From: an uncultured Erysipelotrichaceae bacterium
GTDB taxonomy: Bacteria > Bacillota_I > Bacilli_A > RF39 > UBA660
Assembly (NCBI GenBank): GCA_948442015.1
Contig: CAOJRP010000005.1
Location: forward strand, 9-64,008
Reading direction: 5' to 3'
Length of the DNA stretch: 64,000 bases
Shown here: one piece after another, positions 34,379 through 53,693 of the stretch
How the letters are laid out: the number at the start of each line of letters is the position of its first letter
Numbering within the stretch: position 1 is the first letter of the stretch
Notes under the pieces: generated by a model
The model's database searches: none
Told to the model about the DNA's origin: nothing
What the model saw: only the letters and a program-made list of their open reading frames with translations
Made by a program: the position numbers and the translations under genes

Positions 34379-36163
34379 TTATAATCCACCACCTGTTCCA
34401 AAGGAATCTAACTCATCTTGTGTACAAATAACATTCATTCGCATTCTTCTGCTACCACAGACAAATAACGCTTCTCCTTGATTAAAGTATTTAATACTGT
34501 CCATTTCACTTTCATTTAAGTCAATTAACAAAGCTAAATCATCTACTGCTTGTTTTTTAAGACCCATTATTAAATAATATGAGGCATTATCAAATATGGC
34601 TTTCCCATGCATTATTAAGTTAGGTGCCGCAAAGTCCGTTGGCTGCTGAGTAATAATTATCGTTCCAGCATTATACTTACGACTTCTTCTTTGAATTTGA
34701 GCTAGGAACTCCGCACCTAATTCATTTCTCGTCGATAATAAAACATGGGCTTCATCAACAGATAATACTGATGTTTTTTCTCTATCTAAGCATAATCCCC
34801 AAGCATATTTTAGGATATTAAAGAACAAAGCATTACGGATATTTTCATCAGAGTTCATTAACTCTTTAATATTAAAGACAATTATATCACTATCAATATT
34901 TAAAGTCGTATGTCCTGTAAAATAGTATCTTAATTCTTTAATTAAAGGTCTTACACGTAGTTCAAGTCGCTCCATTACATCTCTCTCTTGCGTCTTATCA
35001 GGCATTGATAAAAGACGTCCTTTAATCGTGGCATAAACATCATCAAATGTTGGATAATCCTCTGATGTAAACTTTGAAAAATCGGTATCAAAATCGATTT
35101 TAAATCTCTTATAAGTATCTTGCAAAACATCACTAAACATCGTTAAGACATCATCTTCAATGGAAGGAGTATAATACTTCATAAATGCTTTAACTGATTG
35201 GAGCGTTCTTGTTAAAATGGTGTACCCAAGACCAGATTCAGCATCTTCTTCATCACTATCTAAAACAACTTCTAAAGGATTTATCATCCCAAACTGGCCA
35301 CCTTTTCCTAAATCTAGGAAACTACCATTTAGAGCACGGCATAAGTCTTCCAACTCACCTTCTGGATCGATACAAACAACTTTATAACCATTTCTAATAT
35401 GTCCTCTAATTAATAGTTTGGCAGCTGTTGATTTACCACTTCCTGACGTACCTAAGATAATCATGTTGGCATTATTACGATTATGTTCTTTCTTAATTTT
35501 AAAGAAGAATTGATTAAATAGGACAACACCACCCGAGAAATCAACACCAAGAAGTGATGCATTTTCAGGATCCTTAATACTATCAAAAACAAAGGGATAC
35601 ATTGCTGCAATTGTAACACTTGGAATTGGCGTTCCAATTCTTGATTCAATATCTTGTTTTGGAAAAATTGGAATAATTGATTTAAGAACTTTTTCTTGTT
35701 CAAACATAAGTGGCACAGCACGCATTCCCAAGGCATCGATGAAACTACGTACTTGCATCTTCTTTAGTTCTAGTTCTTCTTTATTGTCAGCCGTAATCAT
35801 AATATGCATTTGAAAATCATAGATTCTTGCTTGCGTACTTGCAAGCATTGAAATAAATTGTTCTAATGACTCATAATCTTGTCTAATTCGTTCTTGAATC
35901 GTTTTATCATTTTCCGATTGATAACGCATTTTTAAATCGGCTATCTCTTTATTAAGCATTCTTTGTAAAGTGGAAAACTCAATTGGGATATGTTTCGCAA
36001 CAATCTTTATTCCAGATAAATTAGTAATATTTGATAAATAACCATTAGCAATGTATTTAGGGTAACTAATAACTGTAAGAATTGTAGCATACTTACCACT
36101 AATTACAAATTCTGTTGGTTTAAATTGGATTCCCTTAGGGGCTAATTCACTTTTTATGTTCAT
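34379..36163 (-). CDS. VirB4/TraE-type conjugative T4SS ATPase, C-terminal 594-aa part (linker plus ATPase domain)
   Basis: Walker A ILGTSGSGKST, Walker B VLSVDEAHVLL, IIITQQPTDF. The overall order matches Firmicute VirB4 (CD1110-like family). Confidence 0.85.
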   Translation of the reverse strand: MNIKSELAPKGIQFKPTEFVISGKYATILTVISYPKYIANGYLSNITNLSGIKIVAKHIPIEFSTLQRMLNKEIADLKMRYQSENDKTIQERIRQDYESLEQFISMLASTQARIYDFQMHIMITADNKEELELKKMQVRSFIDALGMRAVPLMFEQEKVLKSIIPIFPKQDIESRIGTPIPSVTIAAMYPFVFDSIKDPENASLLGVDFSGGVVLFNQFFFKIKKEHNRNNANMIILGTSGSGKSTAAKLLIRGHIRNGYKVVCIDPEGELEDLCRALNGSFLDLGKGGQFGMINPLEVVLDSDEEDAESGLGYTILTRTLQSVKAFMKYYTPSIEDDVLTMFSDVLQDTYKRFKIDFDTDFSKFTSEDYPTFDDVYATIKGRLLSMPDKTQERDVMERLELRVRPLIKELRYYFTGHTTLNIDSDIIVFNIKELMNSDENIRNALFFNILKYAWGLCLDREKTSVLSVDEAHVLLSTRNELGAEFLAQIQRRSRKYNAGTIIITQQPTDFAAPNLIMHGKAIFDNASYYLIMGLKKQAVDDLALLIDLNESEMDSIKYFNQGEALFVCGSRRMRMNVICTQDELDSFGTGGGL

Positions 36164-36735
36164 AAAGGCATCACCGTCCCAAAATTAGTTGTTGTTCCCC
36201 CATTTAAGAAATTATCTAAAATCATTCTGATATCAGAATTAGATACTTGAGTAGCATTAATTCCACAATTAGCTAAAGCTGCTATTAAGTTATGAATTCT
36301 TTTTTGAATAATTTCCATTTTCTTTTCTTTAAAAAGAATAAAGTATTCGGTATCAACAACGTTATATTCAGCACCCATAAACATATTGGCTTTATCGATA
36401 TCTTGGACAATTATCTTTCTTATTGCGCCATTAGGAGTTTTCGAATATTGAAGTTGTAAGTTAGCTAAATAAACATTAATATCAACTGGCCTATCAGCAA
36501 CTACTAACCAAAATTCGTAATCAATCATATTGTAAAAGTTTCTTAAATTGAAGATAACATTTTCTTGTGTACCTTGATCCATAATGAAAATATTTTTAGG
36601 TTCAACTTTAACACCTGTTACATAGTAACCATTATCTAATTGCACCATTCCATTCATGATTGATTTAATTGGAACCCAATCTTCTGTATACTTACTATCA
36701 TAAGTAACTGCTTTTTTACTTTCTGTCTTCGCCAC
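36160..36735 (-). CDS. VirB4 N-terminal domain encoded as a separate 191-aa protein
   Basis: WVPIKSIMNGMVQLDNGYYVTGVKVEPKNIF......E..I..F..F matches the N-terminal pattern of full-length Firmicute VirB4. The 4-nt ATGA overlap with the ATPase ORF is read directly. 191+594 aa approximates the usual ~780-830 aa. Confidence 0.5.
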   Translation of the reverse strand: MAKTESKKAVTYDSKYTEDWVPIKSIMNGMVQLDNGYYVTGVKVEPKNIFIMDQGTQENVIFNLRNFYNMIDYEFWLVVADRPVDINVYLANLQLQYSKTPNGAIRKIIVQDIDKANMFMGAEYNVVDTEYFILFKEKKMEIIQKRIHNLIAALANCGINATQVSNSDIRMILDNFLNGGTTTNFGTVMPL

Positions 36736-37036
36736 TTGTTACACACCAACCTCTCCAATAGTATTTTTTTCTTCCTGTGTAGAACTTCCAAATATTACTT
36801 AATAATGTCATGACATTGTGATAATTAGGTACTGGCATTACAAGAAATCCTGTTATTATTGCTGGGCTTAATATTAATAACATTTCGGCTATTTTATTTG
36901 TTTTTAAGAAAAATAATCCTACTCCTGTAAATAAAATACCTATTCCAAACACAGCCAAATCAAAACCTGTAAAGTACCCAAATATTAATTGGGACTTCTT
37001 CGAGTTGGCTGGTATTAAGTATCTATTCTCTTCCAT
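36716..37036 (-). CDS. PrgI/VirB3-like small membrane protein
   Basis: 106 aa; LIFGYFTGFDLAVFGIGILFTGVGLFF plus a second TM; position immediately upstream of VirB4. Confidence 0.55.
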   Translation of the reverse strand: MEENRYLIPANSKKSQLIFGYFTGFDLAVFGIGILFTGVGLFFLKTNKIAEMLLILSPAIITGFLVMPVPNYHNVMTLLSNIWKFYTGRKKYYWRGWCVTSGEDRK

Positions 37037-37053
37037 TATAACTCCTCCTTATT

Positions 37054-39708
37054 CTATTTTTTCTTGTCTTTACTACTATCTTCTTTCTTCTTGATATCTC
37101 TTAATGTTGCTGTCATAGCATTTAGTAATTGTTCAAATCCACCATCAATGTCTTTCGTAAGCATTTCCTTAGTATTTTTATTTTCATCGAGATCATTCTC
37201 AACTTTACCTGTTTTTATATCTCCTTTTTTAGCTCTTAATCGATCAAACATTGAAGAGTCTCTCTTTTCATTTAAGTAATCTTTGGCACTATATAAAGCT
37301 TCCAACTCTTTAGCAATACCACCTTTAAAACCTTCTCCAGCTTCTTTTAGTTCTTTTTCTTTATCAGCAATATAAGTATCTAAATACCTATTTAAGACAC
37401 TACTATTACTCTTTAATAAGTCTTCTCTGTCATCTAATGCCTCTGTTACTTTACCAATACGACCATTTTGTTTATCTTGATCTAATAAATCTTGAAGATT
37501 TGTAATATAACCATTTTCATCAAACTTTAATTCACTATCTTTAAATTTAACAGCATAATCTTTTTTACCAGTCATATGGAATTTTAGTTGCGAATCAGTA
37601 ACAGCTTTTTTAGCATCTTCAAATTCTCTTTTAGCTTTGGTAGCTTCCTCATCAACTTTTTGTTGCTCTATATTTTTAGCTGATGCATAAGCAGCTTTCG
37701 CTTGGTCAACATTATCTTGATAAGCTTTTTCATTTTCAGCACTATATTGGTTTTCTAAATTATTTTTTTTATTTGTTGCTTGAATCATTGCTTGTTCATC
37801 AGTTATCCCAGGATTAGATCTTTTAATCGCTACTGCCTCACTATTAATATCGAAACCACCTAATTTTTCTGCTTTTTCTTGTTGAAATGCTTGTAAATTC
37901 TTTTCAGCATTATCAATGTTTTGTTGTAATCTCACACCATTAAATGTTTTACCAAATGTTTCATTAAAATTCTTTTGTGTTTCTTCTGCATTACTCATTT
38001 TATCTTTATAGTATTGGAGTGTTCGATAACCAGTTCCATCATTATACACATAACCTGCCATATTAGTACCTTTTTCCATATCTGATGAAATTTCATCTTT
38101 GGCAGCTTTTCCTTTACTATTAATTTTATCAACAACATCTCTTTTTTGCTGTAAGGCTTCGGAAGTTTGTCCTGTCATAAATCTTACAGCAGAATCTTTA
38201 GCATCACTTAGATGTCCAACACCAACAGCAACGGCATTTCTCATACCTTCTGTTCCAATATTATGTTCTTTCATAGCTCCTGACAATTTATCTGCGCCAG
38301 CTTGATGTTCTTGAGCATAAGTTTCACGTTCATCTCTTTTAGATATTGCCGACGCAATTCCTTTAGATGAGGCTTGAGCCATATCAGAGAAAGTCTTAGC
38401 TGATCTTGCATTATATCCTGCTCGAAGTCCAGCCGATATTGCTCCAGCCCCAGTTGAACCAATACCACCAACTACTGATCCACCAATAGCTTTGGTTTTC
38501 CCCCAAACTCCACTAGCTCCTCCAAAATTACTACGACCTCTTTGGATAGCATTATAGCCATTTCGCATTGCTGTTGTTAATCCAGCACCAGCTGCAGCTG
38601 CTGCCACAAAACCTCCACCTTCTTGCATTCTCTTAGCAAGAGAAAGTCCCATATTACCAGATTTAATACCAAAGATATCTCCAATCATTTTAGGTGCTTG
38701 TCTTGCAAATGCAATAACCCCCATAATTAATAAAGCAGTAGCTAAAGCTTCAATAGGACCATTTAACTCAGTTGTACTTTGAGCAACTGTTTTAATAACC
38801 TCAGGTATTTTTCCTACTAAAACGGCAATTAAATAAACGACAAAAACCCTTATAAACACTTCAAAGAATACAGCAAGAGTTGTTTTGAGCCATTTATTAA
38901 ATATATCATTTTTCTTTGGAAGTATTCGCATGACAATTGGTAAAGGAGCAATTATTTGTAAAGCCGCTAATTTGACTGATCTTATTCCCAGATCAAAAAC
39001 GAAACATAATAAGACGTAAACACAAAATCCACCTGCAATAGTTGACACTATAAAAAAGTACTTCAACTGATCCTTAGCAACTGGTTCAGAGAATTTGGCA
39101 ATATGAAAGAAAGATAGCTGTTTATCAACTATTAATTCCATTGCTTCTTTTACTGTATGACCATCTTCATCCGTAATTTCTCCTACAGTTTGTTCTTCAC
39201 CCTCTTTAGGAGTATAATCTTCATTAGGATATAAAAACGCTAAAAAAACTTGGGTTGCAATGTTTCGACCACCCTTTACAATCGAATCATTATTATCACT
39301 GGTACTATCAGTTCCTACAACTATTCTTCCAATCAAATCATTATCTAGAATGACTCCTTGTAATTGATATAAAATATTAAAAGCAGTTGGCAAAAAAACG
39401 GTCATTAGTAAAGAAGTTATAATATTAGTTATAATCTTTCTTGGAGCCATATCCCCTTTGTTCATTTCTTCAGGATTAACAATTACTTTAAGAAGAGAAT
39501 AAACAATAAAGAACATCATTAAAACGCCAATCAAAATATAAACACGCTTCAAAATATCTCCAAATAATTTTTGATCAAAAATTTGAGCTTTAGCTAATAC
39601 TAAAAAAACTTGATAACAAACGTCAATTAAATAATAAACAATAGCATCAATTGTCAAAAAAATATTAAAAAAGAAATTTTGTATTGCATTAACAATATCT
39701 TCTATCAT
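37054..39708 (-). CDS. VirB6-like polytopic channel protein (TcpH/ConG/PrgH-type) with a Gly/Ala-rich region and a long coiled-coil C-terminal half
   Basis: Multiple TM segments over the first ~340 aa; GGGFVAAAAAGAGLTTA region; K/E/Q/A-rich C-terminal ~440 aa; gene order VirB6-VirB3-VirB4. Confidence 0.6.
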   Translation of the reverse strand: MIEDIVNAIQNFFFNIFLTIDAIVYYLIDVCYQVFLVLAKAQIFDQKLFGDILKRVYILIGVLMMFFIVYSLLKVIVNPEEMNKGDMAPRKIITNIITSLLMTVFLPTAFNILYQLQGVILDNDLIGRIVVGTDSTSDNNDSIVKGGRNIATQVFLAFLYPNEDYTPKEGEEQTVGEITDEDGHTVKEAMELIVDKQLSFFHIAKFSEPVAKDQLKYFFIVSTIAGGFCVYVLLCFVFDLGIRSVKLAALQIIAPLPIVMRILPKKNDIFNKWLKTTLAVFFEVFIRVFVVYLIAVLVGKIPEVIKTVAQSTTELNGPIEALATALLIMGVIAFARQAPKMIGDIFGIKSGNMGLSLAKRMQEGGGFVAAAAAGAGLTTAMRNGYNAIQRGRSNFGGASGVWGKTKAIGGSVVGGIGSTGAGAISAGLRAGYNARSAKTFSDMAQASSKGIASAISKRDERETYAQEHQAGADKLSGAMKEHNIGTEGMRNAVAVGVGHLSDAKDSAVRFMTGQTSEALQQKRDVVDKINSKGKAAKDEISSDMEKGTNMAGYVYNDGTGYRTLQYYKDKMSNAEETQKNFNETFGKTFNGVRLQQNIDNAEKNLQAFQQEKAEKLGGFDINSEAVAIKRSNPGITDEQAMIQATNKKNNLENQYSAENEKAYQDNVDQAKAAYASAKNIEQQKVDEEATKAKREFEDAKKAVTDSQLKFHMTGKKDYAVKFKDSELKFDENGYITNLQDLLDQDKQNGRIGKVTEALDDREDLLKSNSSVLNRYLDTYIADKEKELKEAGEGFKGGIAKELEALYSAKDYLNEKRDSSMFDRLRAKKGDIKTGKVENDLDENKNTKEMLTKDIDGGFEQLLNAMTATLRDIKKKEDSSKDKKK

Positions 39709-39725
39709 TAGCTATCACTTCCTTT

Positions 39726-40166
39726 TTATTGTATACCACAGGTACTATACATTCCCGTTAATTCAAAGAAAAAATTACACAAAACTGGGATGACAAAAAC
39801 AATTAAACCAACAATACCTCTTATAAAAGTATTTTTAACTGCTTTTGTTAATCGATCTTTATCTTGAGAGGTAACAGCTCCCATAAAGTCAAGCAGGGAA
39901 AATACCAAAACTAAAACTGGGGCCCCAATTTTTAATATATCAAATATTTCTTGTAATAAATAGGCAACAGATTCTTCATCATTTTTATCGCCCAAAACTC
40001 CTTCACAAGTAGCAGGAACTTCTGATTTTTCTTCTTCTCCTTCAACTAAAATTTTTCGAACAGAAAAAGAATTTTCTCCACTTGAAAGAGGTTTAGCACT
40101 AACTACACCAAAGAAGGCAAAAAAAACAAAAATTAATAAACCTGTATATGTCAAATATTTAATCAT
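39726..40166 (-). CDS. VirB2/TrbC/Maff2-like small two-TM pilin-like protein with a signal peptide
   Basis: Signal peptide ...GVVSA/KP, then two hydrophobic helices separated by GAVTSQDKDRLTKAVKNTF. Paralogous to the 40242-40607 product. Confidence 0.4.
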   Translation of the reverse strand: MIKYLTYTGLLIFVFFAFFGVVSAKPLSSGENSFSVRKILVEGEEEKSEVPATCEGVLGDKNDEESVAYLLQEIFDILKIGAPVLVLVFSLLDFMGAVTSQDKDRLTKAVKNTFIRGIVGLIVFVIPVLCNFFFELTGMYSTCGIQ

Positions 40167-40241
40167 TTTTTACACCTCATATAAGAAAATTATACCATAA
40201 AAAAAACAATATTCAAAGAAATATCGTTTTTAAGTAAGACT

Positions 40242-40607
40242 TTATTTTACCTTACCTTCATTTTTGCCACTAGTATTACATTTACTAGGACTACTTATAC
40301 ACTCTGCACAAACATTGTAATCATTTTTCACTTCTGTAAATGAATCAACTATAGTGAATATAAATGCAATAAGAGTAGGGATTAAAAAGACTACAACTGC
40401 AGCAATTGCACGAAACATTAATTGTTTCAATGCTTTCTTAATTTCATCGTCTTTAGCACCTACAACAGCTTTTCCTAAATCTAGCATACCAAATATCATT
40501 AAAAGAATTGGAATAACGATTTTAAAAACAAATAATATTCTTCCTACTAATTGCCATACTTCAGCAGTATCTGTACAGAAATGAATAGTTTCATCTAATA
40601 ATAACAT
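40242..40607 (-). CDS. VirB2/TrbC/Maff2-like small two-TM pilin-like protein
   Basis: Two helices separated by LGKAVVGAKDDEIKKALKQLMF; Cys-containing C-terminal tail (CAECISSPSKC). Confidence 0.4.
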   Translation of the reverse strand: MLLLDETIHFCTDTAEVWQLVGRILFVFKIVIPILLMIFGMLDLGKAVVGAKDDEIKKALKQLMFRAIAAVVVFLIPTLIAFIFTIVDSFTEVKNDYNVCAECISSPSKCNTSGKNEGKVK

Positions 40608-40633
40608 AAATTACATCTCCTTCAACTACAAAC

Positions 40634-40662
40634 ATTTTAATATAATTTCCTATAATTGTCAA
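40634..40662 (-). promoter_or_regulatory. Promoter candidate for the T4SS module
   Basis: On the minus strand TTGACA (40662-40657), 17-nt spacer, TAAAAT (40639-40634). GGAG RBS before ATG 40607. Confidence 0.45.
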
Positions 40663-40700
40663 ACAATAACGCCAAATAAATGTCAAATTAATAAAATTTA

Positions 40701-41290
40701 TTAAATAACATACTCATAAATTTTCGAATAAGCATCAAATATTTGACCATTAAAATATATTTCATTTGACTTTCTTTTTTCTTCTAATTTATCAAAAGAT
40801 TCCAATAAATATTTTATTTTTGAATCATGTTCTAAAACCAAATTATTAATGTATTTTTGCTCTATTAAATTGGAAGATATATACTTTCTCATTGCTACAA
40901 AAGCATCCATTATTTGAATGCTAGTTTTAATAGCAACTTCTGTTTTTAATATAGTAGCTAACATTGCAACGCCCTGTTCTGTAAATATTCGAGGATTTTT
41001 ATATCTACCTCCTCGAGTTTCTATTTTTTGGTCACATTTTGTGACCAAAAAACATTTTACTCCATCCTCACTTAAAGTTCAAGACACATCTATAGAAAAT
41101 TTTTCTTTATTTCTTGAAACTACTTGATTAATTTCTTTTGTACCATTTTTACATCCGAAAAGTTTTGCTAAATCACTATCTAATATATTTTCTTTCCTCT
41201 CACGTCATAAATTAAACTTTTAATTTCTTCAACTGATATTTCTTTTATACATTGTTCTATGTAGTCAAGCGTTTTTAATACTTTTTTCAA
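40701..41290 (-). pseudogene. ORF6N-domain (KilA-N-like, phage/ICE-associated DNA-binding) gene with one frameshift and one in-frame TGA
   Basis: Three pieces: ...IKSLIYDVRGKKIY* (frame 1); ..ENILDSDLAKLFGCKNGTKEINQVVSRNKEKFSIDVS-TGA(41081-41079)-TLSEDG.. (frame 2); and the listed 115-aa ORF (FTEQGVAMLATIL..IQIMDAFV). Confidence 0.6.
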
Positions 41291-41311
41291 AATTAAAAAC
41301 TCATAAAAGAG

Positions 41312-42367: not shown

Positions 42368-42380
42368 ATTAAAATTCCTT

Positions 42381-42887
<507 letters not shown>

Positions 42888-42891
42888 ATTA

Positions 42892-43350
42892 TTACCTCGC
42901 TATTGCTACTCTTCTTGTTGTTCCATAAATAGTTGAATTAAAAAATTGTCTAAATATGGGAATATCTAGTTCATAAAATACTTGAACTTTATAATATCTC
43001 GAAGTTAAAACATCTTTATATGTACTACTATCAATTGTTTTAATACAAAATACTGGTTTATTAGTTGTAATACCTTTACTTGATAAATTATAGCCATCAA
43101 AGCCATCATCACAAACTCCATCAGCTCTATGACCTACTGACGCTAAATAATCTTGGATTTCAGCTATAGCACCTGTATCAGTTCCATGAGCATCCCAAAT
43201 ACCTTTTTTATTTTCAATAATGTTAATTATCTCATCTCGTACTTTAAAAGCCCTTGAATAATTTATTGATAAACATAAATACGATGCAAACAAAGCTAGA
43301 AATAAAATAACTATTAAAAATAACCAAGTTCCACCAATCGCTTCTTTCAA
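42892..43350 (-). CDS. Pseudopilin/TadE-like exported protein 1 (152 aa)
   Basis: Leader MKEAIG plus a hydrophobic segment, then SINYSRAFKVRDEIINIIE; two Cys. Confidence 0.45.
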   Translation of the reverse strand: MKEAIGGTWLFLIVILFLALFASYLCLSINYSRAFKVRDEIINIIENKKGIWDAHGTDTGAIAEIQDYLASVGHRADGVCDDGFDGYNLSSKGITTNKPVFCIKTIDSSTYKDVLTSRYYKVQVFYELDIPIFRQFFNSTIYGTTRRVAIAR

Positions 43351-43360
43351 TTTAATTCAC

Positions 43361-43582: not shown

Positions 43583-43600
43583 TTTATTACCTCAATCTAA

Positions 43601-43846: not shown

Positions 43847-43870
43847 TAATATTCCTCCTCTATTATTAGT

Positions 43871-44162: not shown

Positions 44163-44198
44163 AGTATAAAAAAAATTAACTATTTAAAGTTAACATTT

Positions 44199-44981: not shown

Positions 44982-44982
44982 C

Positions 44983-45876: not shown

Positions 45877-45895
45877 TTTTGTTTCTCCCTTTCTA

Positions 45896-47338
45896 TTATA
45901 ATGTATCGCTTACATTACTTGTAATTGTGTTATCAAAAGTCCTTGGTATTTCTATTTGTGGTGTTTGTACTTCTCTCTGTACTTGTGGTTGTTCTACACT
46001 TTGTAATTGTTCTTGTGAATTTATGGGTTGTTCACTCGGTGCCGAAATAATTTTTGTATAAGTAATTCCATCATTATTGGTTGGTACACTATTTTCTTGC
46101 TCCACTATAGTAGATGGAGTTGGTACTTCAATATTAGGAACTAAATTATCCCCTATATTTTGAGTTTCCTTTACAGCTTGTTCTTCATTCATTTTAAATG
46201 GGTCTTCAACATTTAGATTAAGTGTTTTATCACTTGTTTCAGAAGTTGTATCAGTCCCCTCTCCACTGTTTCCTAATCCGAAAGTATCTTCTGGTAAAAA
46301 GACATTACCGATACTTAAGTAATTAAGTAATACCTGCGTTGGATTATGTAGAGTAACTTTCCCATCTAAGCTCTTTTGATATAAGACATTAGTCATCGGT
46401 TTATTATCTTCATCAACATAGAATTCACATACTTCAATAATCTCTCTTTGAAATCTATTTAAAGCTTTCGAAAAATATCCTTTAACATAGATTCCAATTT
46501 GAACATATCTATGAATTGAACCTAAGAATTGTTCAATATCTTGACTAGATTCAAGTAGTGAATACATACGCATTGGTATACTACTTGCTTTATCAGCATG
46601 GATAGTGGATAAAATATGGTGTCCTGAAGATATAGAGTTACGAACAGCTAAAACAGCTTCTCCACTACGAACTTCGGATAGTAGTATCCAAATGGGATTC
46701 TGTCTCATACATGTAACTAGTACATCTGTGTAACTTGCAATATTATTTGTTTTCATTGCTACAATATCACGGTGAGGGAAAATTCTATCTAAGTGCAGTT
46801 CTAGAGTATCTTCAATTGTAATTATTTTTTCATTTTCTTTAATATTACTAGCTAAGTATTTAACAAGTTCTGTTTTACCTGAACCAGTTTCTCCAGCAAC
46901 AATTATATTACAATGTCCTTCAATACATTTCATTAAAAAATCATGTAATTGAACTGTAATATATTGTTCATCAATAAGTTTTTCTTTATTTAATCGAATT
47001 TTAGCTGGTGTCTTACGAATAAGGCAAGCAATACCATTAGTAGCAATTGAATCATGAACAAAGTTCATACGTAATTCAGCAGATTCAGCATCCAAAAAAG
47101 GATGGGCCATATTAAATGTTTTTCCCATAACATTAGAACATTGAAATGCTAATTTTTCCATAAATGGATTATTTATTTCTGGTCTTTCAACTTGATAAAC
47201 ACCTTTAGATAAAGTTTTTAGCCATACTTGACCACCATTACTATATGATATATCGGTAATGTCGTCTTGTTCTAAAAATTCTGTTAAAGGTCCAAAATCC
47301 ATTTGGGAAAAAATATTGTTATTACTAGCCATATCCAT
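45896..47338 (-). CDS. TadA/CpaF-type secretion ATPase (GspE/VirB11 superfamily) with a ~115-aa low-complexity C-terminal extension
   Basis: Walker A GETGSGKTE, Asp box IITIEDTLEL, Walker B WILLSEVRSGEA, His box GHHILSTIHA. The tail is rich in Q/P/E/T/S/N. Confidence 0.75.
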   Translation of the reverse strand: MDMASNNNIFSQMDFGPLTEFLEQDDITDISYSNGGQVWLKTLSKGVYQVERPEINNPFMEKLAFQCSNVMGKTFNMAHPFLDAESAELRMNFVHDSIATNGIACLIRKTPAKIRLNKEKLIDEQYITVQLHDFLMKCIEGHCNIIVAGETGSGKTELVKYLASNIKENEKIITIEDTLELHLDRIFPHRDIVAMKTNNIASYTDVLVTCMRQNPIWILLSEVRSGEAVLAVRNSISSGHHILSTIHADKASSIPMRMYSLLESSQDIEQFLGSIHRYVQIGIYVKGYFSKALNRFQREIIEVCEFYVDEDNKPMTNVLYQKSLDGKVTLHNPTQVLLNYLSIGNVFLPEDTFGLGNSGEGTDTTSETSDKTLNLNVEDPFKMNEEQAVKETQNIGDNLVPNIEVPTPSTIVEQENSVPTNNDGITYTKIISAPSEQPINSQEQLQSVEQPQVQREVQTPQIEIPRTFDNTITSNVSDTL

Positions 47339-47366
47339 ATTTTTTCACCCTCTTTTAATTCTTATT

Positions 47367-48146
47367 TTATTCTTGATCTTGTAAAATAACTGTTTGATTT
47401 AAGATAAATGCTTGCAATTCTTCACTACTAACTTGTGTTTCGCCTGGGTTAGCAGAGTAATTTCTATTTCTTGGAATCGGTTCGATATCTATTCCACTTA
47501 AATTATCAGCTTTTTTAAGAAGTAAGAATAAATCTTCTGGAACAGCAAATAAAAGCTCTGCTGGTTCTTTAGCTTCTGTCGTTTCAAAAACGTGATTTCC
47601 ATTGGCATCTTTAACATCTAATACTCGAATACTTTCAATTAATTTACCATAAATAAGTAATCGGTCTTCACTTTGAGCAGTGAGGTATAAATCGATTGAA
47701 TTATCAGGAAATATAGAATTACCATAAGTCATATGATTATCAACTGCTAAACTAAATATGGTATAGCCATCAGGAATGTCTGCAAAAGATGAATCTGGCA
47801 TTTCCGCTTTAGTCTTCAATACTTCTTGATAAAACAAACTATTTTTAGGTATTGTTGTCGCGTAACTAACATATTTTCCAATAATATCATTAGAATTTCG
47901 AACTAAATTATTACTATTACTTACTAAACTAGAAGGAACTTCAGTATACCCAATCATTGTTTCATCAATTAAAGTTCTTGATTGTATCTCCACTTTCGCA
48001 TAAGGAACAGAAACTGGATTAGTTGATTGTTTTACTCGCCAGTCATAACCTATGTATAAGACAACTACTCCAAGGAGTACCCCAAGAATAGTTACTGTGT
48101 TTTTATTTCCTAAAAATTTTTTAAAAGGAGTTAAAATATTACCCAT
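47367..48146 (-). CDS. CpaB/RcpC-like pilus assembly protein (SAF plus beta-clip domains)
   Basis: N-terminal TM. VPYAKVEIQSRTLIDETMIGYTEVP....L..N.....DIIGKY....I....... is a SAF-like pattern, followed by IPDGYTIFSLAVD....GNSIFPDNSIDLYLT. Confidence 0.55.
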   Translation of the reverse strand: MGNILTPFKKFLGNKNTVTILGVLLGVVVLYIGYDWRVKQSTNPVSVPYAKVEIQSRTLIDETMIGYTEVPSSLVSNSNNLVRNSNDIIGKYVSYATTIPKNSLFYQEVLKTKAEMPDSSFADIPDGYTIFSLAVDNHMTYGNSIFPDNSIDLYLTAQSEDRLLIYGKLIESIRVLDVKDANGNHVFETTEAKEPAELLFAVPEDLFLLLKKADNLSGIDIEPIPRNRNYSANPGETQVSSEELQAFILNQTVILQDQE

Positions 48147-48162
48147 TTTTATTCCTTCCCTT

Positions 48163-48612
48163 CTAATCCCATGTACATTTTATATTTTCTTCAATGCCAG
48201 TACCTTCAATACTTTCAACAATAGCTGTCATTCTAGTTGTTGTAGCAACATCAGTATTTTGATTTGCTATGAAGAAACTACCTCCAGATGATTTTATCTC
48301 AACTGTTACTTTTGGAGGCATTTCATATAATTCATAGAAATTAACTTCATAAGTTGAATTTAAACTTGCTGTTTCAGCAAACCTTTTCATAAAGTTAGCA
48401 ACAAATTTTTCTTTATTAATCTTAATCGCTCCATCGTGGTTACGATAATATGCTTTATCGACAGATTCATATAAAGAGGCTTCTGTTACTTCTTTAATTT
48501 CGTAGTAGTCTTGAGTATTAAATGTTGTTGAACTTTGTGTAAACATCATAACAACAAAGATAAATACTCCAAGGATTATTATCCAATAACCCCAATAAGC
48601 TGTTTTCATCAT
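48163..48612 (-). CDS. N-terminally anchored small exported protein (149 aa)
   Basis: Single N-terminal TM (YWGYWIIILGVFIFVVMMF); no recognised motif; translationally close-packed within the pilus operon. Confidence 0.45.
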   Translation of the reverse strand: MMKTAYWGYWIIILGVFIFVVMMFTQSSTTFNTQDYYEIKEVTEASLYESVDKAYYRNHDGAIKINKEKFVANFMKRFAETASLNSTYEVNFYELYEMPPKVTVEIKSSGGSFFIANQNTDVATTTRMTAIVESIEGTGIEENIKCTWD

Positions 48613-48633
48613 AATTTAAACAACTCCCTTCAT

Positions 48634-51600
48634 TTAACTTCGAAGATTATTGACAGTCACACCATCAATATCTTTCAAAGTATCTAACCAAGGATTTGTA
48701 CAAACTGCATCGTTTTCACAAGTAAGTTCAAATCCGCCATAATTGATTGAAGAAGCTTGACTCTTTAGTTCTACAATTCCTTTTGGACTAATCGTAAATG
48801 AGTATTCTGGAGGCTTGGCATACGCTCCATCTCCTAATTCTTCTATTTCAGCTCGAGCTTGTTGTCCTTCTTCGGTTTTCGACCAGTTACTTCCTAATTC
48901 TCTATTTTTATTCAAACTATTTAAAGAAACATTACTAACAAAGAATGACACGTCACCTGTTACATCAATATAACCACTATCATTACCATATCCTGAGCAA
49001 CGATAACCATCAGGACATTCTAGTAAGGAAATAATTTCTGTTTTAATCTTTGAAGCGCAAGGATTTTTGTTAACTACTTTATAAGTACACATATAAGTTT
49101 GGTCAAATTCACCACTTAATAAACCATTAGAATTAACATTCTTATAACCTTTTAATGCAGCAAAGACACTACCTCTTCCACTATGAGCTTTGTCATTTCC
49201 ACCAATTAAACGACCTAATGCTTGATTATCTGGACTGCCATTATATTGTCCAACATCGACAAATCGTAATTGATAATTATAATCTCCTGGTTGCGTATTC
49301 TCACTTAATGGTAAAACTTTTCCATCTCCACCTTTAGCTTCCCCTGTTACTAATGATGTCTTTTCATCAAGTTGTGTTTTTAATTCTTCAGATGAATTAT
49401 ATATAGCTGCCCCAGAGTCATGAACTGTATACCATCTTCCTCTTATTTCATAAGAATATTCGGCATGTTTTTCGAGTAAAATTGAGGAGCTATAATACAT
49501 TTTTTTGTGATCATCACGACAACTTGATACAAAGCCTCCAGAGTTATCATTATCATTTAAAGTACAAGTAAAGATATTATTTGTGTTTCCTTGTTGATAT
49601 GCACTTCCTCCACTATTTCCACTCATCTTTGAATAATCATCACGTTTAGATTCTTGATCACGATATGTAGTTTCACCAGCAGATACTCCTGGAGTACCAC
49701 CACCAATTATTTGGAATTTATTATTACCCTGTAATTGATTCATATAATCGTGCTCTTGATATGTATAGCTTATTTCTGGTTCATATTTAAAGTTATTTTC
49801 CCAAGTATTACATTCTGTTATATCATCAATCATTTCTTGTCTTTGGGCAATAAGTTGATTATATCTATTTTTGGCACTATCTCGTTTACTTACCCAAGCA
49901 TCATAACCATAATCTTGTTTTGCTTCGACTACTTCAGCAGAACAATCACTCTTACAATTATCCCCATCATTTTTAACTTCTATATAACCACAAGTAGTTT
50001 CATTTTTACATTTTGGTTCAGTATAACCTTCTTCAAATTCAACATTCTTTTCACTATTTCTTAATTTACCATTAGCATCATAACTTTTTTCTGGAGTAAA
50101 TTTAACTATTCGGAATTTCACTTTTCCATTTAAAGTTCTTTTATCACCTAAAGTAGCAGAACGTTCAACACGAGAAACTACACTTCCACATTCTGAAACA
50201 TCTCCACCACCACAACTATAATTTTTTGTTTCTGATGTTTTAGTAGATTGCTTATCAAACCAGTAAACATAAGCAGCAGCTTCTGAGTATTCATTAAGTG
50301 CTTTAACAATATCATTATCAATTTTTTCTAAATCTCTTTGGAAATATCCTTCTCCACCCGCATAATTAGTTGTTATTTCGTTTTCACTTGTCTTTGTACT
50401 ACCATTACCAGCAACACAAGTTCTAGAACCTTTTACTCTTAGAGAATGCTCTCCTACGCTACCAGCAAGAATCATATAAGTACCTGCTTTATGTTCTCCT
50501 AAATCACCAGGCATTTGGAATTCCCAATCCTCTTTACAAGAAACCGTACAATATCTATTTTTTATAATATTATATGTATTTTCAGCAGGATCTTTTTCAT
50601 CAATAATACAATCCTTATAATTCATTTGACCTGTTTTTTGGCTAATACCTTCATGAATTTCATATACATCACCATCTGCTCCACAAACTAAATTCCATTT
50701 AGCTTGAACGCAAACATCATCTTTAGTTGGACACCATCTTGGATCTGCATCAGGTTCATCACAACATTTAGCTTTATACATTTCTTCATTAAATGCAGGA
50801 TTCCCTGGTGTAAGCATTGGATCAGTTCCACAAGCTCCACAAGTAACATCAGCAATATCAGCCACAACAATGCTTAATTCTTGTTGTTGATCATTTTTTA
50901 AGAAAGAGACAAATCTTTGTGAAGAACCAGAATTATTTACTGATTTTAATAATATAACGTTATGATAATCATCTTTGCTTAAAGCTCGTACTCTTATTCC
51001 AACTTCACCTTTAGCTTTTGCAAAAGCATCTGAACTTCCTTTAACCCAAATTTCATACTCTGTACCATTTGGTATTCTTGATCCAGGAGATACTACTCCA
51101 TTATTAATGCGCAATTCACAAGTTAAACCAGTTGGACAAATAGGTTCAAGATAATTATATTCACCATTATATTTGTCTAACCCAGCTATACTGCCTTGAA
51201 TTATCTTAATTAATGATCCTCCTTCAGTTTTACAATCAGACTTTTCCATTTGTGACCATTTAACACCAACTTCTTCTAAACCACTACATTCTGATCCTGA
51301 GCAAGTGTCTGCAACAGCCTTAGCATCTAAATAAATACTCTTAGCAGTACCTACTATATCGCCAAAATTAAGATTAGTCACAATAGTTGATGCAGGCTTA
51401 CACATTGAACTTCCTACTTCACACTCCCAAGAATTAGCAAGTTGCCAAAATGCTGCTGATTTACCATTACTTGATGATGATCCGTCAATCATTTGTTGAT
51501 AAGCTCTTATTGCTATAACAATTCCTGCCCTTATATTAGTATTATCTAATTGATTCCCATATTTTTTATAAATATAATAAATAAATGCTTCTTGTTTAAT

Positions 51601-52914
51601 AGAACTATCTCCAGCAGCTGATGGAAATACATTTATTCCATCAAAGGGATTAATATAATTATCAAACTCATAAGGATTATATGCTGAGTGATATGCTTTA
51701 TCAGGATCATAACAGAAAGAATAATATTCATTTTTATTATTACACATTTCTGTTGCTGAATATAAATTAACTGGTCCTGTATGAGTATCACCACCATAAG
51801 TATAAGAATACTTTCTGTAATTGTCATGAGTCAAATTAACTTGATAATAACGGCAATCGCCACTTTCTAAAGCTTCTGCCCAATTAATATTATTCATCGC
51901 ATTACTTGGAGCAGATGGGCCAGTCACTGGCGTACTACCAGGATTTTTTGGAGTTGACTCTATAGGTGTAGCCCCTGATCCAGTTTTAGAGCATGTATTT
52001 TCATAAATAGCGTAAAAACTAACATTTCGTCCATCCGAAGACCAAGTTCCTGTTTTTAATTCTGTTTGTCCTAATCTACAATAATTATCAGAACTAGTAG
52101 CTTGTGACCAACCTAAAAATTTACCATATTTAGAGCTATCTGTTGGTCTAGGTAAAGAATATCCTTTTTTAGCCTCATATTTACAAGTTTTTCCTCTTGA
52201 TCCGCCAGAGCAATTTGAAAAGGCACTAAGTCCAATATTGCTTCCATCTAAATTAAGAAAACTAATAGAGCCCATTGAAACATTATTAGTTGCTTGAGTT
52301 ACATTAACAGGAAAAGTCCATTTAATTGTAGAACCATCATTAAATCTTTGCGTTAAATATACATTAGTACTACCAACAGATTGAGCTACTACAGTACAAT
52401 TACCAGATGTACAAGCAATACTTGCAATGTTAGAATTATCACTGACTGATGAGCCATTAACTATTGTAGATTCAGATATAGAACTACCAAGATTTTCTAA
52501 TTCTATTTTTTTTGCAGTTCCACCTATTTGTAAATTTATTGTTTCCCCAATTTTCTGACCACTTATAGTTACTTCACCATCATCATTTTTATTTTCAACA
52601 ACTCTGTATTTATATTCTGAATAACCACCGTCTACTGCTCCTGTCCATAAAGAATAATGATGCGCTCTTACAGTAATTACTGTCCCAATTGGGGCATTTT
52701 TATATATGTCTACAAGCAAGTAATCTTTATAAAATTGACAATTAGCATAATTTTTCCCAGGTACTGAACAAGTCAAAATTGCTCTTCCAGTTTTTTCTTC
52801 TATTAGTTCTCCTTGCAATACTTCTTTAGCACTAACACTACTACTAACTATAAAGAAACTAACTAAAAAGACTAAAATTGATAGTAAATATTTTTTATTA
52901 ATACTTTTTCCCAT
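48634..52914 (-). CDS. Giant secreted Cys-rich surface protein (1426 aa); candidate adhesin or pilus-associated protein
   Basis: Signal peptide ...SSSVSA/KE. A Big_2-like segment (SNIASIACTSGNCTVVAQSVGSTNVYL) and a Listeria-Bacteroides-repeat-like segment (KYGKFLGWSQ...VSFYAIYE) are present. Dozens of Cys occur throughout. Confidence 0.6.
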   Translation of the reverse strand: MGKSINKKYLLSILVFLVSFFIVSSSVSAKEVLQGELIEEKTGRAILTCSVPGKNYANCQFYKDYLLVDIYKNAPIGTVITVRAHHYSLWTGAVDGGYSEYKYRVVENKNDDGEVTISGQKIGETINLQIGGTAKKIELENLGSSISESTIVNGSSVSDNSNIASIACTSGNCTVVAQSVGSTNVYLTQRFNDGSTIKWTFPVNVTQATNNVSMGSISFLNLDGSNIGLSAFSNCSGGSRGKTCKYEAKKGYSLPRPTDSSKYGKFLGWSQATSSDNYCRLGQTELKTGTWSSDGRNVSFYAIYENTCSKTGSGATPIESTPKNPGSTPVTGPSAPSNAMNNINWAEALESGDCRYYQVNLTHDNYRKYSYTYGGDTHTGPVNLYSATEMCNNKNEYYSFCYDPDKAYHSAYNPYEFDNYINPFDGINVFPSAAGDSSIKQEAFIYYIYKKYGNQLDNTNIRAGIVIAIRAYQQMIDGSSSSNGKSAAFWQLANSWECEVGSSMCKPASTIVTNLNFGDIVGTAKSIYLDAKAVADTCSGSECSGLEEVGVKWSQMEKSDCKTEGGSLIKIIQGSIAGLDKYNGEYNYLEPICPTGLTCELRINNGVVSPGSRIPNGTEYEIWVKGSSDAFAKAKGEVGIRVRALSKDDYHNVILLKSVNNSGSSQRFVSFLKNDQQQELSIVVADIADVTCGACGTDPMLTPGNPAFNEEMYKAKCCDEPDADPRWCPTKDDVCVQAKWNLVCGADGDVYEIHEGISQKTGQMNYKDCIIDEKDPAENTYNIIKNRYCTVSCKEDWEFQMPGDLGEHKAGTYMILAGSVGEHSLRVKGSRTCVAGNGSTKTSENEITTNYAGGEGYFQRDLEKIDNDIVKALNEYSEAAAYVYWFDKQSTKTSETKNYSCGGGDVSECGSVVSRVERSATLGDKRTLNGKVKFRIVKFTPEKSYDANGKLRNSEKNVEFEEGYTEPKCKNETTCGYIEVKNDGDNCKSDCSAEVVEAKQDYGYDAWVSKRDSAKNRYNQLIAQRQEMIDDITECNTWENNFKYEPEISYTYQEHDYMNQLQGNNKFQIIGGGTPGVSAGETTYRDQESKRDDYSKMSGNSGGSAYQQGNTNNIFTCTLNDNDNSGGFVSSCRDDHKKMYYSSSILLEKHAEYSYEIRGRWYTVHDSGAAIYNSSEELKTQLDEKTSLVTGEAKGGDGKVLPLSENTQPGDYNYQLRFVDVGQYNGSPDNQALGRLIGGNDKAHSGRGSVFAALKGYKNVNSNGLLSGEFDQTYMCTYKVVNKNPCASKIKTEIISLLECPDGYRCSGYGNDSGYIDVTGDVSFFVSNVSLNSLNKNRELGSNWSKTEEGQQARAEIEELGDGAYAKPPEYSFTISPKGIVELKSQASSINYGGFELTCENDAVCTNPWLDTLKDIDGVTVNNLRS

Positions 52915-53636
52915 TATATAACACTCTTCTTTCTTCTTTTAGTAATTACTATAACGATAATTACTCCAACTAATATAATTACTAAGATTATTGCTATATA
53001 CCAATATTTACTAACCAACTCTTTTGCTTCTTCAATGATATTATCTTCCTCTTTATTCTCTTTTTCTTCCTCTTCCAAATATTTTTCAAATGCTTTAGTA
53101 AATTCTTCATTTGTTAATGTTGATATATCAAAATTAACATATTTACTACAGTATTTAAAATCTGGATGAGTACTACATGATGCGACATCAGAGTATTCAT
53201 TAAACATCGGTGTATTTAAAGTTAATGTCTTTAATGTTTCTCCATAGCAATCTTTAGATGCTGATTTAATTGTAAATTCATATCTTTTTATTTCAGTAGC
53301 ATTATCATCTTTCATTTGTAGCTCATTGTCATCATTTCGTTGTTCTGAAGTTAAAGAGAAATTTTTAAACGTATCATTTAAACTCTTAACATCAACTATT
53401 ATTTCATCAGGAACATTATGCAGTGATATTAATAGATAACGATCAAGACAAGTTTCTAAACATTCTTCTCCATCATCTTCATTTTCAATGGGTTCATAAT
53501 CGACTTTAAGTTCACTAACTCTTTGTTTTTCTTCGTACAAAGTTGTTGCTGGACAAGTAGATGCCGCACTTGCTGTAGTTACAAAAATTCCTAGTAAAAC
53601 GCTAGTAAATAAAACATATTTTATATTTTTCATCAT
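52914..53636 (-). CDS. Type I membrane-anchored exported protein (240 aa)
   Basis: Signal peptide ...TTASA/AS; Cys-containing ectodomain; C-terminal TM plus KRRKK stop-transfer. The TAATG junction with the giant gene overlaps by 1 nt. Confidence 0.5.
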   Translation of the reverse strand: MMKNIKYVLFTSVLLGIFVTTASAASTCPATTLYEEKQRVSELKVDYEPIENEDDGEECLETCLDRYLLISLHNVPDEIIVDVKSLNDTFKNFSLTSEQRNDDNELQMKDDNATEIKRYEFTIKSASKDCYGETLKTLTLNTPMFNEYSDVASCSTHPDFKYCSKYVNFDISTLTNEEFTKAFEKYLEEEEKENKEEDNIIEEAKELVSKYWYIAIILVIILVGVIIVIVITKRRKKSVI

Positions 53637-53664
53637 AAAAACACCAACCTATTTTCTACTTAAT

Positions 53665-53693
53665 ATTGTAACATGGGGTATGTAAATTAACAA
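53665..53693 (-). promoter_or_regulatory. Promoter candidate for the pilus-assembly/adhesin operon
   Basis: Minus strand TTGTTA (53693-53688), 17-nt spacer, TACAAT (53670-53665) preceded by TGT. Confidence 0.35.

Follow-up and report, generated by a model that had tools for sequence, protein, structure and literature searches.

What kind of machine is encoded where genes resembling the parts of a Tad/Flp pilus run straight into genes resembling the core of a type IV secretion system (T4SS)? The question is raised by a minus-strand block of genes at positions 34379–53636 of a 64,000-nucleotide stretch (hereafter the window) of contig CAOJRP010000005.1, from an uncultured Erysipelotrichaceae bacterium. 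An original prediction, made from the sequence of the window, had proposed a new composite apparatus in which a Tad/Flp-like module is fused to a relaxase-less T4SS core, and had offered as its alternative a chromosomal Tad locus and a decayed integrative and conjugative element (ICE) brought together in a hotspot. We argue here that the block forms a single conserved unit of the chromosome, akin to the apparatus of pLS20-class plasmids, a reading to which we give a probability of about three in four (a figure that excludes the mechanism). We place it within a known T4SS class, as a chromosomal variant, and not as a composite apparatus of a new kind; “new” and “fused” overstate the case, since pLS20, pZB18 and a Paraclostridium plasmid natively have this composite order.

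The block comprises 18 intact genes (7 + 5 + 6) and a truncated ORF6N remnant, all on the minus strand. Every predicted open reading frame (ORF) was found at its coordinates, although the number of intact genes is 18 and not the 20 first counted, 18 being also the sum of the prediction's own gene lists. Inside each sub-block the genes are spaced −41 to +75 bp apart, and there are two big gaps, one of 352 bp between the TadC-like gene and the first pilin-like gene and one of 704 bp between the TadZ-like gene and the first VirB2-like gene. The DNA of the window is chromosomal and low in GC (about 27%), and the block is surrounded by housekeeping genes (rpoB/rpoC, polA, fpg, sufB, ssb, and a full-length ftsK); the adjoining 10 kb outside the window, read via a sister contig, likewise contains nothing but housekeeping genes. 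A megablast comparison of the 19-kb block with plasmids returned no match. Homology was assessed at three levels: hidden Markov models (HMMs) from Pfam and NCBIfam, profile–profile alignment with hhalign, and AlphaFold2 (AF2) models searched with Foldseek.

That the block behaves as a unit emerges from its relatives. VirB4 has >7000 close homologues, of which the top 120 are all ≥83% identical and come from metagenome-assembled genomes named Candidatus Coprovivens, Bacilli or Tenericutes, and relatives' VirB4 lies on contigs of up to 1 Mb. With each species represented by one genome, a scan recovered a VirB4 relative in at least 515 species-level genomes, the best 80 of them at 75–98% identity. 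We take this Coprovivens-like lineage to be the GTDB order RF39. A core of VirB2, VirB6, PrgI, the VirB4 N-domain ORF and VirB4 is present at every locus with enough flanking sequence, and Tad-like genes lie directly upstream at 27 of the 58 loci with ≥8 kb of upstream sequence. In a neighbour-joining tree of VirB4, the Tad-adjacent loci include the deepest branches as well as many separate clades, and adjacency therefore looks ancestral, with several later separations. The reciprocal test, begun from the ATPase on metagenome contigs, gave a concordant picture: nearly all loci with enough downstream sequence reach VirB2, VirB6, PrgI and VirB4 by way of the pilin-like, pseudopilin-like and TadZ-like genes. 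Breaks in synteny fall at the TadC/pilin boundary (L059, L097, L100) or, in L115, behind the first VirB2 gene, and not at the supposed Tad/T4SS junction. The very common relative L081/L082 carries a complete co-oriented operon running from the T2SSE gene to VirD4; an ORF6N gene is missing there, and TadZ and VirB2 are 67 bp apart. The adjacency of VirB4 and Tad-like genes across genomes, on which the single-unit reading of the original prediction depended, is thus found in many species and looks ancestral, and the reading itself is upheld by the recurrence in many species of the same order from surface proteins to VirB4, co-oriented and tightly packed. We regard the block as a single unit because this order recurs in many species, because the deepest VirB4 branches are Tad-adjacent, and because its genes are under strong purifying selection (see below). 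As a side observation, CHAP2-like proteins are encoded just upstream of the pilin/T4SS genes in one deep-branching clade (L057, L068, L076, L080).

The same arrangement recurs on conjugative plasmids. When the T2SSE-family ATPase of the block was searched by tblastn against 72,556 plasmids, its best matches (E 1e-22 to 1e-45) were “CpaF/VirB11 family” ATPases of Firmicute conjugative plasmids, namely pLS20 (gene 37), natto plasmids, E. faecium pZB18, a Paraclostridium plasmid, pXO2, pXO1 and Listeria plasmids, whereas genuine CpaF (Ralstonia, Sinorhizobium) and genuine VirB11 (Rhizobium) were equally far away, at only 1e-11 to 1e-13. Against the pLS20/pZB18/Paraclostridium class specifically, the ATPase scores E 1e-28 to 1e-45 and VirB4 1e-27 to 1e-32. 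We take pZB18, whose record gives this name only, to be pHTbeta-like. The mating-pair formation (MPF) operons of these three plasmids (genes 34–54 in pLS20) share the gene order of the block from the adhesin through VirB4. They start with a large adhesin (thioester or SpaA type), small transmembrane (TM) proteins including the DUF5411 protein p36, and the ATPase p37; they continue with the membrane proteins p38 (~268 aa) and p39 (~243 aa), the 120-aa TM protein p40 and tiny TM proteins, with an annotated VirB2 in addition in pZB18; and they end with VirD4, an extended VirB6, a DUF5592/PrgI-like protein, a 192–205-aa ORF, a ~630–650-aa VirB4, a VirB8-like protein and a hydrolase. With HMMs of the chromosomal families, the positional equivalents were the top matches in all three plasmids. 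The layout around VirB4 is also alike, an ORF of 191 aa preceding VirB4 in the window just as the 192–205-aa ORF does in the plasmids; between this VirB4 N-domain ORF and plasmid p51, hhalign gave 0.4% probability and there was no HMM match. Homology to the plasmid class extends to the ATPase, p39, p36, p40, VirB4 and, in relatives of the window, a VirD4 of the CD1115 family.

There are also differences. Unlike the plasmids, the locus is chromosomal and fixed across its lineage, and it has no relaxase, oriT or replication module. It carries extra CpaB-like and TadZ-like genes, which make the chromosomal version the more Tad-like one, and its pilin-like proteins are larger and Cys-rich. VirD4, absent from the window, follows VirB4 in chromosomal relatives but precedes VirB6 in the plasmids. 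Judged from gene order and homology, the combination of a Tad-like module with a monoderm T4SS is not peculiar to the window: it is built into a plasmid T4SS class that was already known, and had gone unrecognised there. This class natively joins a large adhesin, a Tad-like sub-machine and a VirB2/VirB6/VirB3/VirB4 channel. In the literature on the pLS20 family, gene 37 is a “putative VirB11,” genes 36 and 38–47 are “unknown,” and the plasmids are described as encoding no pilus components (PMC8557374), and a 2025 review of T4SSs makes no mention of pLS20 or Tad in this context (PMC12857230). A separate observation on the plasmids concerns conserved peptides of 47–50 aa (pLS20 gene 41 type) that start with MLDQN[AT]DR and continue into a hydrophobic helix (13191–13334 in L124, i.e., pLS20; 23196–23339 and 23456–23599 in L125; 15011–15163 in L126). 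Their size and layout are those expected of a Flp-like major pilin, and they too are “unknown” in the pLS20 paper (PMC8557374).

How Tad-like is the Tad-like half? It opens with surface proteins. The first gene of the block (52914–53636) encodes a 240-aa protein that has an N-terminal signal peptide and a Cys-containing ectodomain and is anchored by a C-terminal TM segment; it has no significant Pfam match, and a weak homologue (21–30% identity) holds the same slot, upstream of the giant protein, in relatives. That giant is here a secreted surface protein of 1426 aa with 44 Cys (48634–52914), which has no Pfam or PDB sequence match and whose homologues in relatives are fast-evolving, stand in the same position and reach 2085 aa. 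As the slot is filled by a thioester adhesin in pLS20 and by a SpaA-like protein in pZB18, we infer by analogy that the Cys-rich protein is probably a contact adhesin. The third gene (48163–48612) encodes a DUF5411 protein (PF17424, 162.8 bits) with an N-terminal TM segment and the start MKxxYWGYW. It aligns with the plasmid p36 homologues (hhalign probability 91.4%, E 9e-7), and pLS20 p36 itself matches DUF5411 (E 1.4e-5); in Clostridia, DUF5411 has been reported beside CpaF/PilC genes (PMC9523054).

The following genes encode the presumptive assembly machinery. A CpaB/RcpC-like protein (47367–48146) scores 23.8 bits against RcpC (cut-off 28.8) and E 1.3e-6 against TIGR03177, and aligns with real CpaB over 156 columns (hhalign probability 94.7%, E 6.4e-8). 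Next to it, the T2SSE-family hexameric ATPase (45896–47338) scores 92.3 bits against PF00437 T2SSE (cut-off 24.9) and finds its best PDB matches in CpaF (2e-18), FlaI (1e-15) and VirB11 (1.5e-15), while in NCBIfam VirB11 (109 bits, cut-off 250), the TadA family (99 bits, cut-off 373) and TrbB are all far below cut-off. The C-terminal ~120 residues of the ATPase (45896–46260) form a low-complexity tail rich in Ser, Thr, Pro and Gln, the length of which varies widely, orthologues measuring 367–609 aa. A TadC-like platform protein (44199–45023) carries a T2SSF-like domain: it aligns with bona fide TadB/TadC over 140 columns (hhalign probability 80.4%, E 1.3e-5; 76% in a second run) and with plasmid p39 (95.2%, E 2.9e-8), and its HMM matches p39 homologues at E 3e-8, 2e-4 and 6e-3. 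The T2SSF signal is one of profile–profile level only, Pfam T2SSF not being reached; searches of Pfam, NCBIfam and PDB gave no sequence match, and a Pfam scan of 62 orthologues at E ≤ 1 found T2SSF in 2 members only (E 0.07). Of the two domains of the TadZ-like protein (41312–42367), the N-terminal one is REC-like, and the C-terminal one resembles ParA/MinD and has a degenerate P-loop (HAGATT). The protein is identified by fold: its AF2 model (pLDDT 75) finds ParA, MinD, HypB and the RcsB REC domain with Foldseek, as well as the Eubacterium rectale TadZ, itself a protein of two domains (3fkq; E 4.9e-3, probability 0.97), while there was no sequence-level match in Pfam, NCBIfam or PDB, and hhalign against CpaE/TadZ was negative.

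The 297-aa polytopic membrane protein encoded between the ATPase and the TadC-like protein (44983–45876), named TadB-like in the original prediction, matches no known family. Searches of Pfam, NCBIfam and PDB found nothing, its AF2 model (pLDDT 69) has no Foldseek match (best PDB E 0.36), and against bona fide TadB/TadC it reaches 0.2–0.4% probability. An exhaustive profile search of 1.84 billion cluster representatives showed the family to be narrow (306 clusters), with no T2SSF domain in its distant full-length members. Some weak co-linear similarity to the TadC-like protein was seen (31% probability, E 5e-4), falling to 1% and E 0.053 with larger alignments, along with a weak similarity to pLS20 p38 (E 0.004–0.015).

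Downstream of the platform genes lie the candidates for the fibre itself. Two small pilin-like proteins of 81 and 73 aa (43361–43846), recognised from sequence and conservation, each consist of one hydrophobic helix and a Cys-rich tail behind an N-terminus, MKEA[TS]GELN, that is invariant across about 50 orthologues. They have no Pfam match, no similarity to Flp in hhalign and no Flp G/XXXXEY motif. Two pseudopilin-like proteins of 152 and 157 aa (42414–43350), identified from sequence and from homology to pLS20 gene 40, start with M[KR]E[AS]xGxxW and then a TM segment; they align with plasmid p40 (hhalign probability 71.6%, E 3.5e-5; tblastn to pZB18 p40, E 0.001) and show no similarity to TadE in hhalign. 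The pilin-like and pseudopilin-like proteins have an N-terminal motif in common (72% probability over 28 columns), and near-invariant N-termini followed by a hydrophobic helix are seen in the pilins (MKEATGELN), the pseudopilins (M[KR]EAIGGTW) and the DUF5411 protein (MKESYWGYW) alike. With Tad (type IVc)/Flp systems, such as Cpa of C. crescentus or the Tad locus on a Carboxydocella plasmid, the module has several features in common. CpaF is the best solved relative of its T2SSE ATPase; its two platform-type proteins measure ~270–300 aa, and in one of them a likeness to T2SSF can be detected; a CpaB-like protein and a TadZ-like fold are present; and in several small proteins a hydrophobic helix follows a short leader. 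Unlike in Tad, the Flp motif is missing, nothing resembles TadE/TadF, no prepilin peptidase was found in the 64 kb, the ATPase is far below the TadA/CpaF model cut-offs, and the genes form part of a T4SS operon. We call the module Tad-like for these reasons and do not count it as a canonical Flp/Tad system.

Between the TadC-like gene and the pilin genes, an intergenic stretch of 352 bp (43847–44198) contains a promoter-like TGTATAAT, an extended −10-like element ahead of the pilin gene. It also contains two exact copies of TTCGTG[CT]AAA (44065–44074 and 44097–44106, minus strand), 32 bp apart. No further exact copy occurs in the 64 kb, which makes the pair a possible operator controlling the pilins; ~20 bp upstream there is also a third copy, AACGTGCAAA, which is a near match. 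In many relatives (L085, L086, L089, L090, L093, L095, L112, L114) a divergent gene pair (about 300–1900) stands directly upstream of the locus, next to the gene of the 240-aa type, and encodes a ~230-aa Rce1/CPBP-like intramembrane protease and a ~150-aa membrane-anchored protein that is possibly thioredoxin-like. We consider the two a candidate pilin-processing protease and a candidate disulfide helper. The window lacks both genes; the transfer region of pZB18 also has a CPBP protease.

Could the ATPase be a plain VirB11-type T4SS motor, the platform, pilin-like and pseudopilin-like proteins being T4SS accessories that form no fibre and whose likeness to Tad is superficial? NCBIfam ranks VirB11 first (E 1.7e-31), the pLS20 authors named gene 37 accordingly and left its neighbours “unknown” (PMC8557374), the TadB-like protein is without T2SSF signal or fold match, the pilins are unlike Flp and the pseudopilins unlike TadE, and no prepilin peptidase was found in the window. 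Yet VirB11 systems lack CpaB, TadZ and T2SSF partners, and here a CpaB-like protein, a TadC-like protein and a TadZ-like fold adjoin the ATPase, for which, moreover, the top PDB match is CpaF. Five families also share a charged leader, MKE[AS]xxG, followed by a hydrophobic helix, which is the general layout of class III signal peptides. On this balance we judge a plain VirB11 motor unlikely, though it is the strongest of the competing explanations.

The T4SS half begins with two VirB2-like membrane proteins of 121 and 146 aa (39726–40607; PF18895 T4SS_pilin, 21.9 and 22.8 bits, cut-off 26.6), a family that relatives expand to up to 5 paralogues, some of them 350–590 aa long. Then follow an extended VirB6-like channel protein of 884 aa with a polytopic N-half and a charged, coiled C-half (37054–39708; TrbL 16.2 bits, E 0.009), whose position is constant in all 80 loci compared, and a PrgI/VirB3-like protein with two TM segments (36716–37036; PrgI 21.5 bits, below the cut-off of 27). 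The VirB6-like protein scores 49.6 bits (E 3e-13, cut-off 90) against the NCBIfam conjugal transfer model of the MMCAP2_0566 family (NF045848). The HMM of the PrgI-like family matches the DUF5592 protein of pZB18 (E 0.004), and hhalign against plasmid p50 gives 30% probability. The VirB4 N-terminal domain is a separate 191-aa ORF (36160–36735) that matches positions 97–276 of the NCBIfam Mycoplasma-ICE VirB4 model NF045975 (53 bits), and one relative's orthologue of it carries the annotation PF26593 TraC-like. It overlaps by 4 nt the 594-aa ORF of the VirB4 ATPase domain (34379–36163), which exceeds the Pfam cut-offs for P-loop_TraG and AAA_10 (46.3 bits each) and matches positions 294–891 of NF045975 (E 4.8e-106) with 355.5 bits, below the membership cut-off of 590. 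The split of VirB4 into two ORFs is kept in every relative compared. In one clade (L006, L015, L017, L011, L012), 4–5 tandem VirB2-like paralogues, several of 280–590 aa, lie upstream of VirB6; the same clade has neither adjacent Tad-like genes nor a downstream VirD4, and its tandem paralogues resemble the VirB2-like pilin clusters described for Patescibacteria.

Taken gene by gene, the original assignments fared unevenly. Its VirB4 ATPase and N-domain calls are borne out by NF045975 and, for the ATPase ORF, by Pfam, and its T2SSE ATPase, CpaB-like, TadC-like and TadZ-like calls have backing from HMMs, hhalign or fold (from fold only, for TadZ). Checks by HMM or profile–profile alignment are accordingly positive for VirB4, T2SSE, the CpaB-like and the TadC-like protein, and weak for PrgI, VirB6 and VirB2, which were rightly placed only to the extent that scores below family cut-offs allow. 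They are negative for the TadB-like protein, a call that no HMM or fold search supports, and for the pilins; the pilin and pseudopilin calls find no resemblance to Flp or TadE in hhalign.

Several of these results weigh against reading the block as a Tad-like and T4SS unit of the pLS20 class. Neither the TadB-like protein nor the pilins or pseudopilins find a match among type IV filament families; no prepilin peptidase (TadV/CpaA, peptidase A24) was found among the Pfam-scanned ORFs of ≥70 aa in the window; the VirB6, PrgI and VirB2 assignments score under family cut-offs; and about half of the informative VirB4 loci are without Tad-like genes within 10 kb. In addition, VirB4 and VirB6 score best against Mycoplasma-ICE models and not against pLS20 models, and for this reason the relationship to the plasmids is to be understood as a shared architecture with several homologous parts, not as close kinship.

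Are the genes that remain a working system or a remnant? The operon is shorter in the window than in most relatives, where the usual order after VirB4 is a cell-wall hydrolase, a ~255-aa protein and the coupling protein VirD4; among 48 loci with enough downstream sequence, VirD4 is present in 41 and the hydrolase in 35. The hydrolase of the relatives is large and combines M23 with lysozyme or is of the SpoIID type. In L081, VirD4 scores 293.8 against the NCBIfam CD1115 family (cut-off 250), which is also the family of pLS20 p48, and the ~255-aa protein (p257) was negative against pLS20 VirB8 in hhalign. Searches of the window with tblastn and HMMs for homologues of the hydrolase, p257 and VirD4 returned only P-loop-level noise to FtsK, and a VirB8-like protein is likewise absent from the window. 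The “relaxase-less minimal core” of the original prediction is thus a derived state. In the window, and in its closest relative, L001 (98% identical), the place of the three genes is taken by a gene of the PDDEXK_2 (Rpn-like) nuclease/transposase family (33411–34142, minus strand; 243 aa; PF12784, E 4e-10), with lipid-synthesis genes beyond it. This gene marks the truncation point of the operon, and since it is split into three ORFs in L001 (11981–12957), it suggests recent decay of an element that may have caused the loss of the three genes.

A hydrolase is not, as had been claimed, missing from the window altogether, since two CHAP-domain proteins are encoded at 24818–25687 and 25802–26827 (minus strand), one of them with a cadherin-like domain and a C-terminal TM segment as well. 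Together with the full-length FtsK (4TM, alpha, motor, gamma; 22500–24734, minus strand) they lie 8–12 kb downstream of the block. We considered FtsK and the two CHAP proteins as a relocated coupling protein and hydrolase and rejected them, FtsK having the full alpha/gamma architecture of a chromosomal FtsK and neither being homologous to the relatives' genes.

The remaining genes are under strong purifying selection and are not decaying. Between the window and L001, the ratio of nonsynonymous to synonymous divergence (dN/dS) is 0.016 for VirB4, 0.03 for the VirB4 N-domain ORF, 0 for PrgI, 0.016 for TadC, 0.03 for TadB, 0.065 for TadZ and 0.02–0.06 for pilin 1 and the pseudopilins, compared with 0.18–0.27 for the neighbouring lipid genes. 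The genes of the locus and those around them have dS values of similar magnitude. As the genes are still strongly selected, the machine either works without a local coupling protein or uses one from elsewhere. Some T4SSs for DNA uptake, protein export or adhesive pili do operate without a coupling protein (PMC12857230).

A second explanation would make the locus part of an active ICE whose relaxase, integrase and, here, VirD4 lie beyond the sequence seen. The homologous systems of known function (pLS20, pZB18-type plasmids, Mycoplasma ICE) are all conjugative, relatives keep the VirD4 coupling protein, and PDDEXK_2 and ORF6N genes hint at mobile DNA nearby. Pfam scans of the window ORFs found no relaxase, integrase or VirD4, just as had been predicted, and the sole Rfam match in the window, one tRNA at 6010–6086, is far from the block. 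What surrounds the locus in relatives are housekeeping genes that differ between genomes (FemAB, RuvA, RmuC, BacA, tRNA synthetase, rpoBC). Among 148 unassigned proteins in and around the relatives' loci, no relaxase or integrase was seen among the Pfam families matched by ≥2 proteins, the recurrent families being VTT, FemAB, RmuC, Rce1-like, thioredoxin and PDDEXK_2. The presence of the locus in at least 515 species-level genomes, the very high conservation of VirB4 and a dS like that of its neighbours argue in the same direction. Measured as a conjugative element, the locus has no relaxase and no mobile replicon and, in the window, no coupling protein, T4SS hydrolase or VirB8-like gene, and we consider an active ICE improbable.

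The weakest explanation, a chance meeting in a hotspot of an unrelated chromosomal Tad locus and a decayed ICE remnant, could draw on the ORF6N pseudogene and 704-bp gap between the halves, on the missing hydrolase, VirB8-like and VirD4 genes, and on the separation of the halves in some relatives, but we reject it as very improbable given that adjacency is recurrent, widespread and ancestral on the VirB4 tree down to its deepest branches, that the same combination and order occur in independent plasmid families, that dN/dS of the core T4SS genes (0–0.07) reveals purifying selection and no decay, that synteny breaks inside the Tad half (TadC/pilins) and not between Tad and T4SS, and that the ORF6N insertion is confined to the window's sub-lineage. 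The remnant itself (40701–41048), which sits in the 704-bp gap and matches the final 25 residues only of PF10543, is a lineage-specific insertion between the two halves: in most relatives TadZ and VirB2 are ~65–100 bp apart without any ORF6N gene, and in L012 an intact 342-aa ORF6N homologue lies at a different place.

We thus return to the conserved unit of the pLS20 class, which we read as an ancient, chromosomally fixed cell-surface machine of uncultured, low-GC, Coprovivens-like Bacilli, and ask which other systems it resembles. The T4SS of Mycoplasma ICEs (Mbov_0397-family VirB4/TraE, MMCAP2_0566) supplies the best-scoring curated models for VirB4 and VirB6, but the scores are below the equivalog cut-offs (590 and 90), and VirB4 is split into two ORFs here. 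Mycoplasma ICEs live in a related clade (Bacilli/Mollicutes) and are mobile through a DDE transposase; to our knowledge they have no canonical relaxase and no T2SSE/Tad-like module. By lifestyle, the closest analogue may be found in Patescibacteria, where a chromosomal, relaxase-less, MPF-FATA-like T4SS with multiplied VirB2-like genes works alongside type IV pili, on which it depends (T4P; PMC12857230, PMC12102498). Both systems are lineage-wide and chromosomal in monoderms with reduced genomes, lack a relaxase, show multiplied VirB2-like genes and co-occur with a filament system, but in the lineage studied here the filament-like genes share an operon with the T4SS. The thin pilus of IncI R64 and the PAPI-1 island illustrate the same functional logic as is proposed here, in that a type-IV-filament pilus helps or is required for VirB4/VirD4 transfer (PMC12857230); unlike here, those are type IVb pili of diderms, the two gene clusters lie apart or differ in ancestry, and the systems include a relaxase.

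How might such a machine work? In the mechanism that we propose, contact with another cell would be made and held by the adhesin together with a short fibre or piston of Tad type, for which the T2SSE ATPase would provide the drive. The ATPase and the TadB/TadC-like platform would assemble the MKEATG/ELN proteins into this fibre or piston, with the TadZ-like and CpaB-like proteins guiding assembly. VirB4 and VirB6, with the PrgI-like and VirB2-like proteins, would form a translocation channel, and the VirB4-powered VirB6 channel may move DNA or protein across the envelope; in relatives, VirD4 would feed substrates to it. With regard to the promoter-led blocks of the original prediction, a consensus promoter scan stood at chance level, with 116 sites where 113 are expected, and so did a terminator scan, although the top-scoring promoter site of the region is just upstream of the first VirB2-like gene. 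Of the genes near the block, some are of toxin type: two PemK/MazF-like genes (273–644 and 4488–5222) and, directly upstream of the block, a HipA_C-like kinase gene (54273–55100).

More broadly, it is possible, if still doubtful, that the Gram-positive T4SS class comprising pLS20, pZB18, pXO2 and the chromosomal version holds a cryptic Tad-derived filament module for a retractile contact fibre or piston, and that RF39-type Bacilli have domesticated this hybrid as a near-universal, relaxase-free organelle. As far as we know, Gram-positive T4SSs are held to lack pili and, mostly, VirB11. Were the proposal true, monoderm “conjugative pili” would exist and would be built by a Tad-like machine rather than by VirB2, and the organelle may obtain DNA or other goods from neighbours, as the Patescibacteria T4SS and T4P do. 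The “unknown” pLS20 genes 36–40 are already linked to Tad-type parts (a T2SSF-like platform, DUF5411 and pseudopilin-like proteins), and this link to pLS20 makes the hypothesis directly testable in a tractable organism. The RF39-type Bacilli are prevalent in the gut and have reduced genomes. Among the most conserved loci of this large uncultured lineage is a relaxase-free secretion or contact machine that parallels the essential T4SS of Patescibacteria, and in the literature searched no paper connects RF39-type Bacilli with VirB4 or type IV secretion. The locus points to a contact-dependent lifestyle or a DNA-exchange system that, within that literature, would be new for this group of Bacilli.

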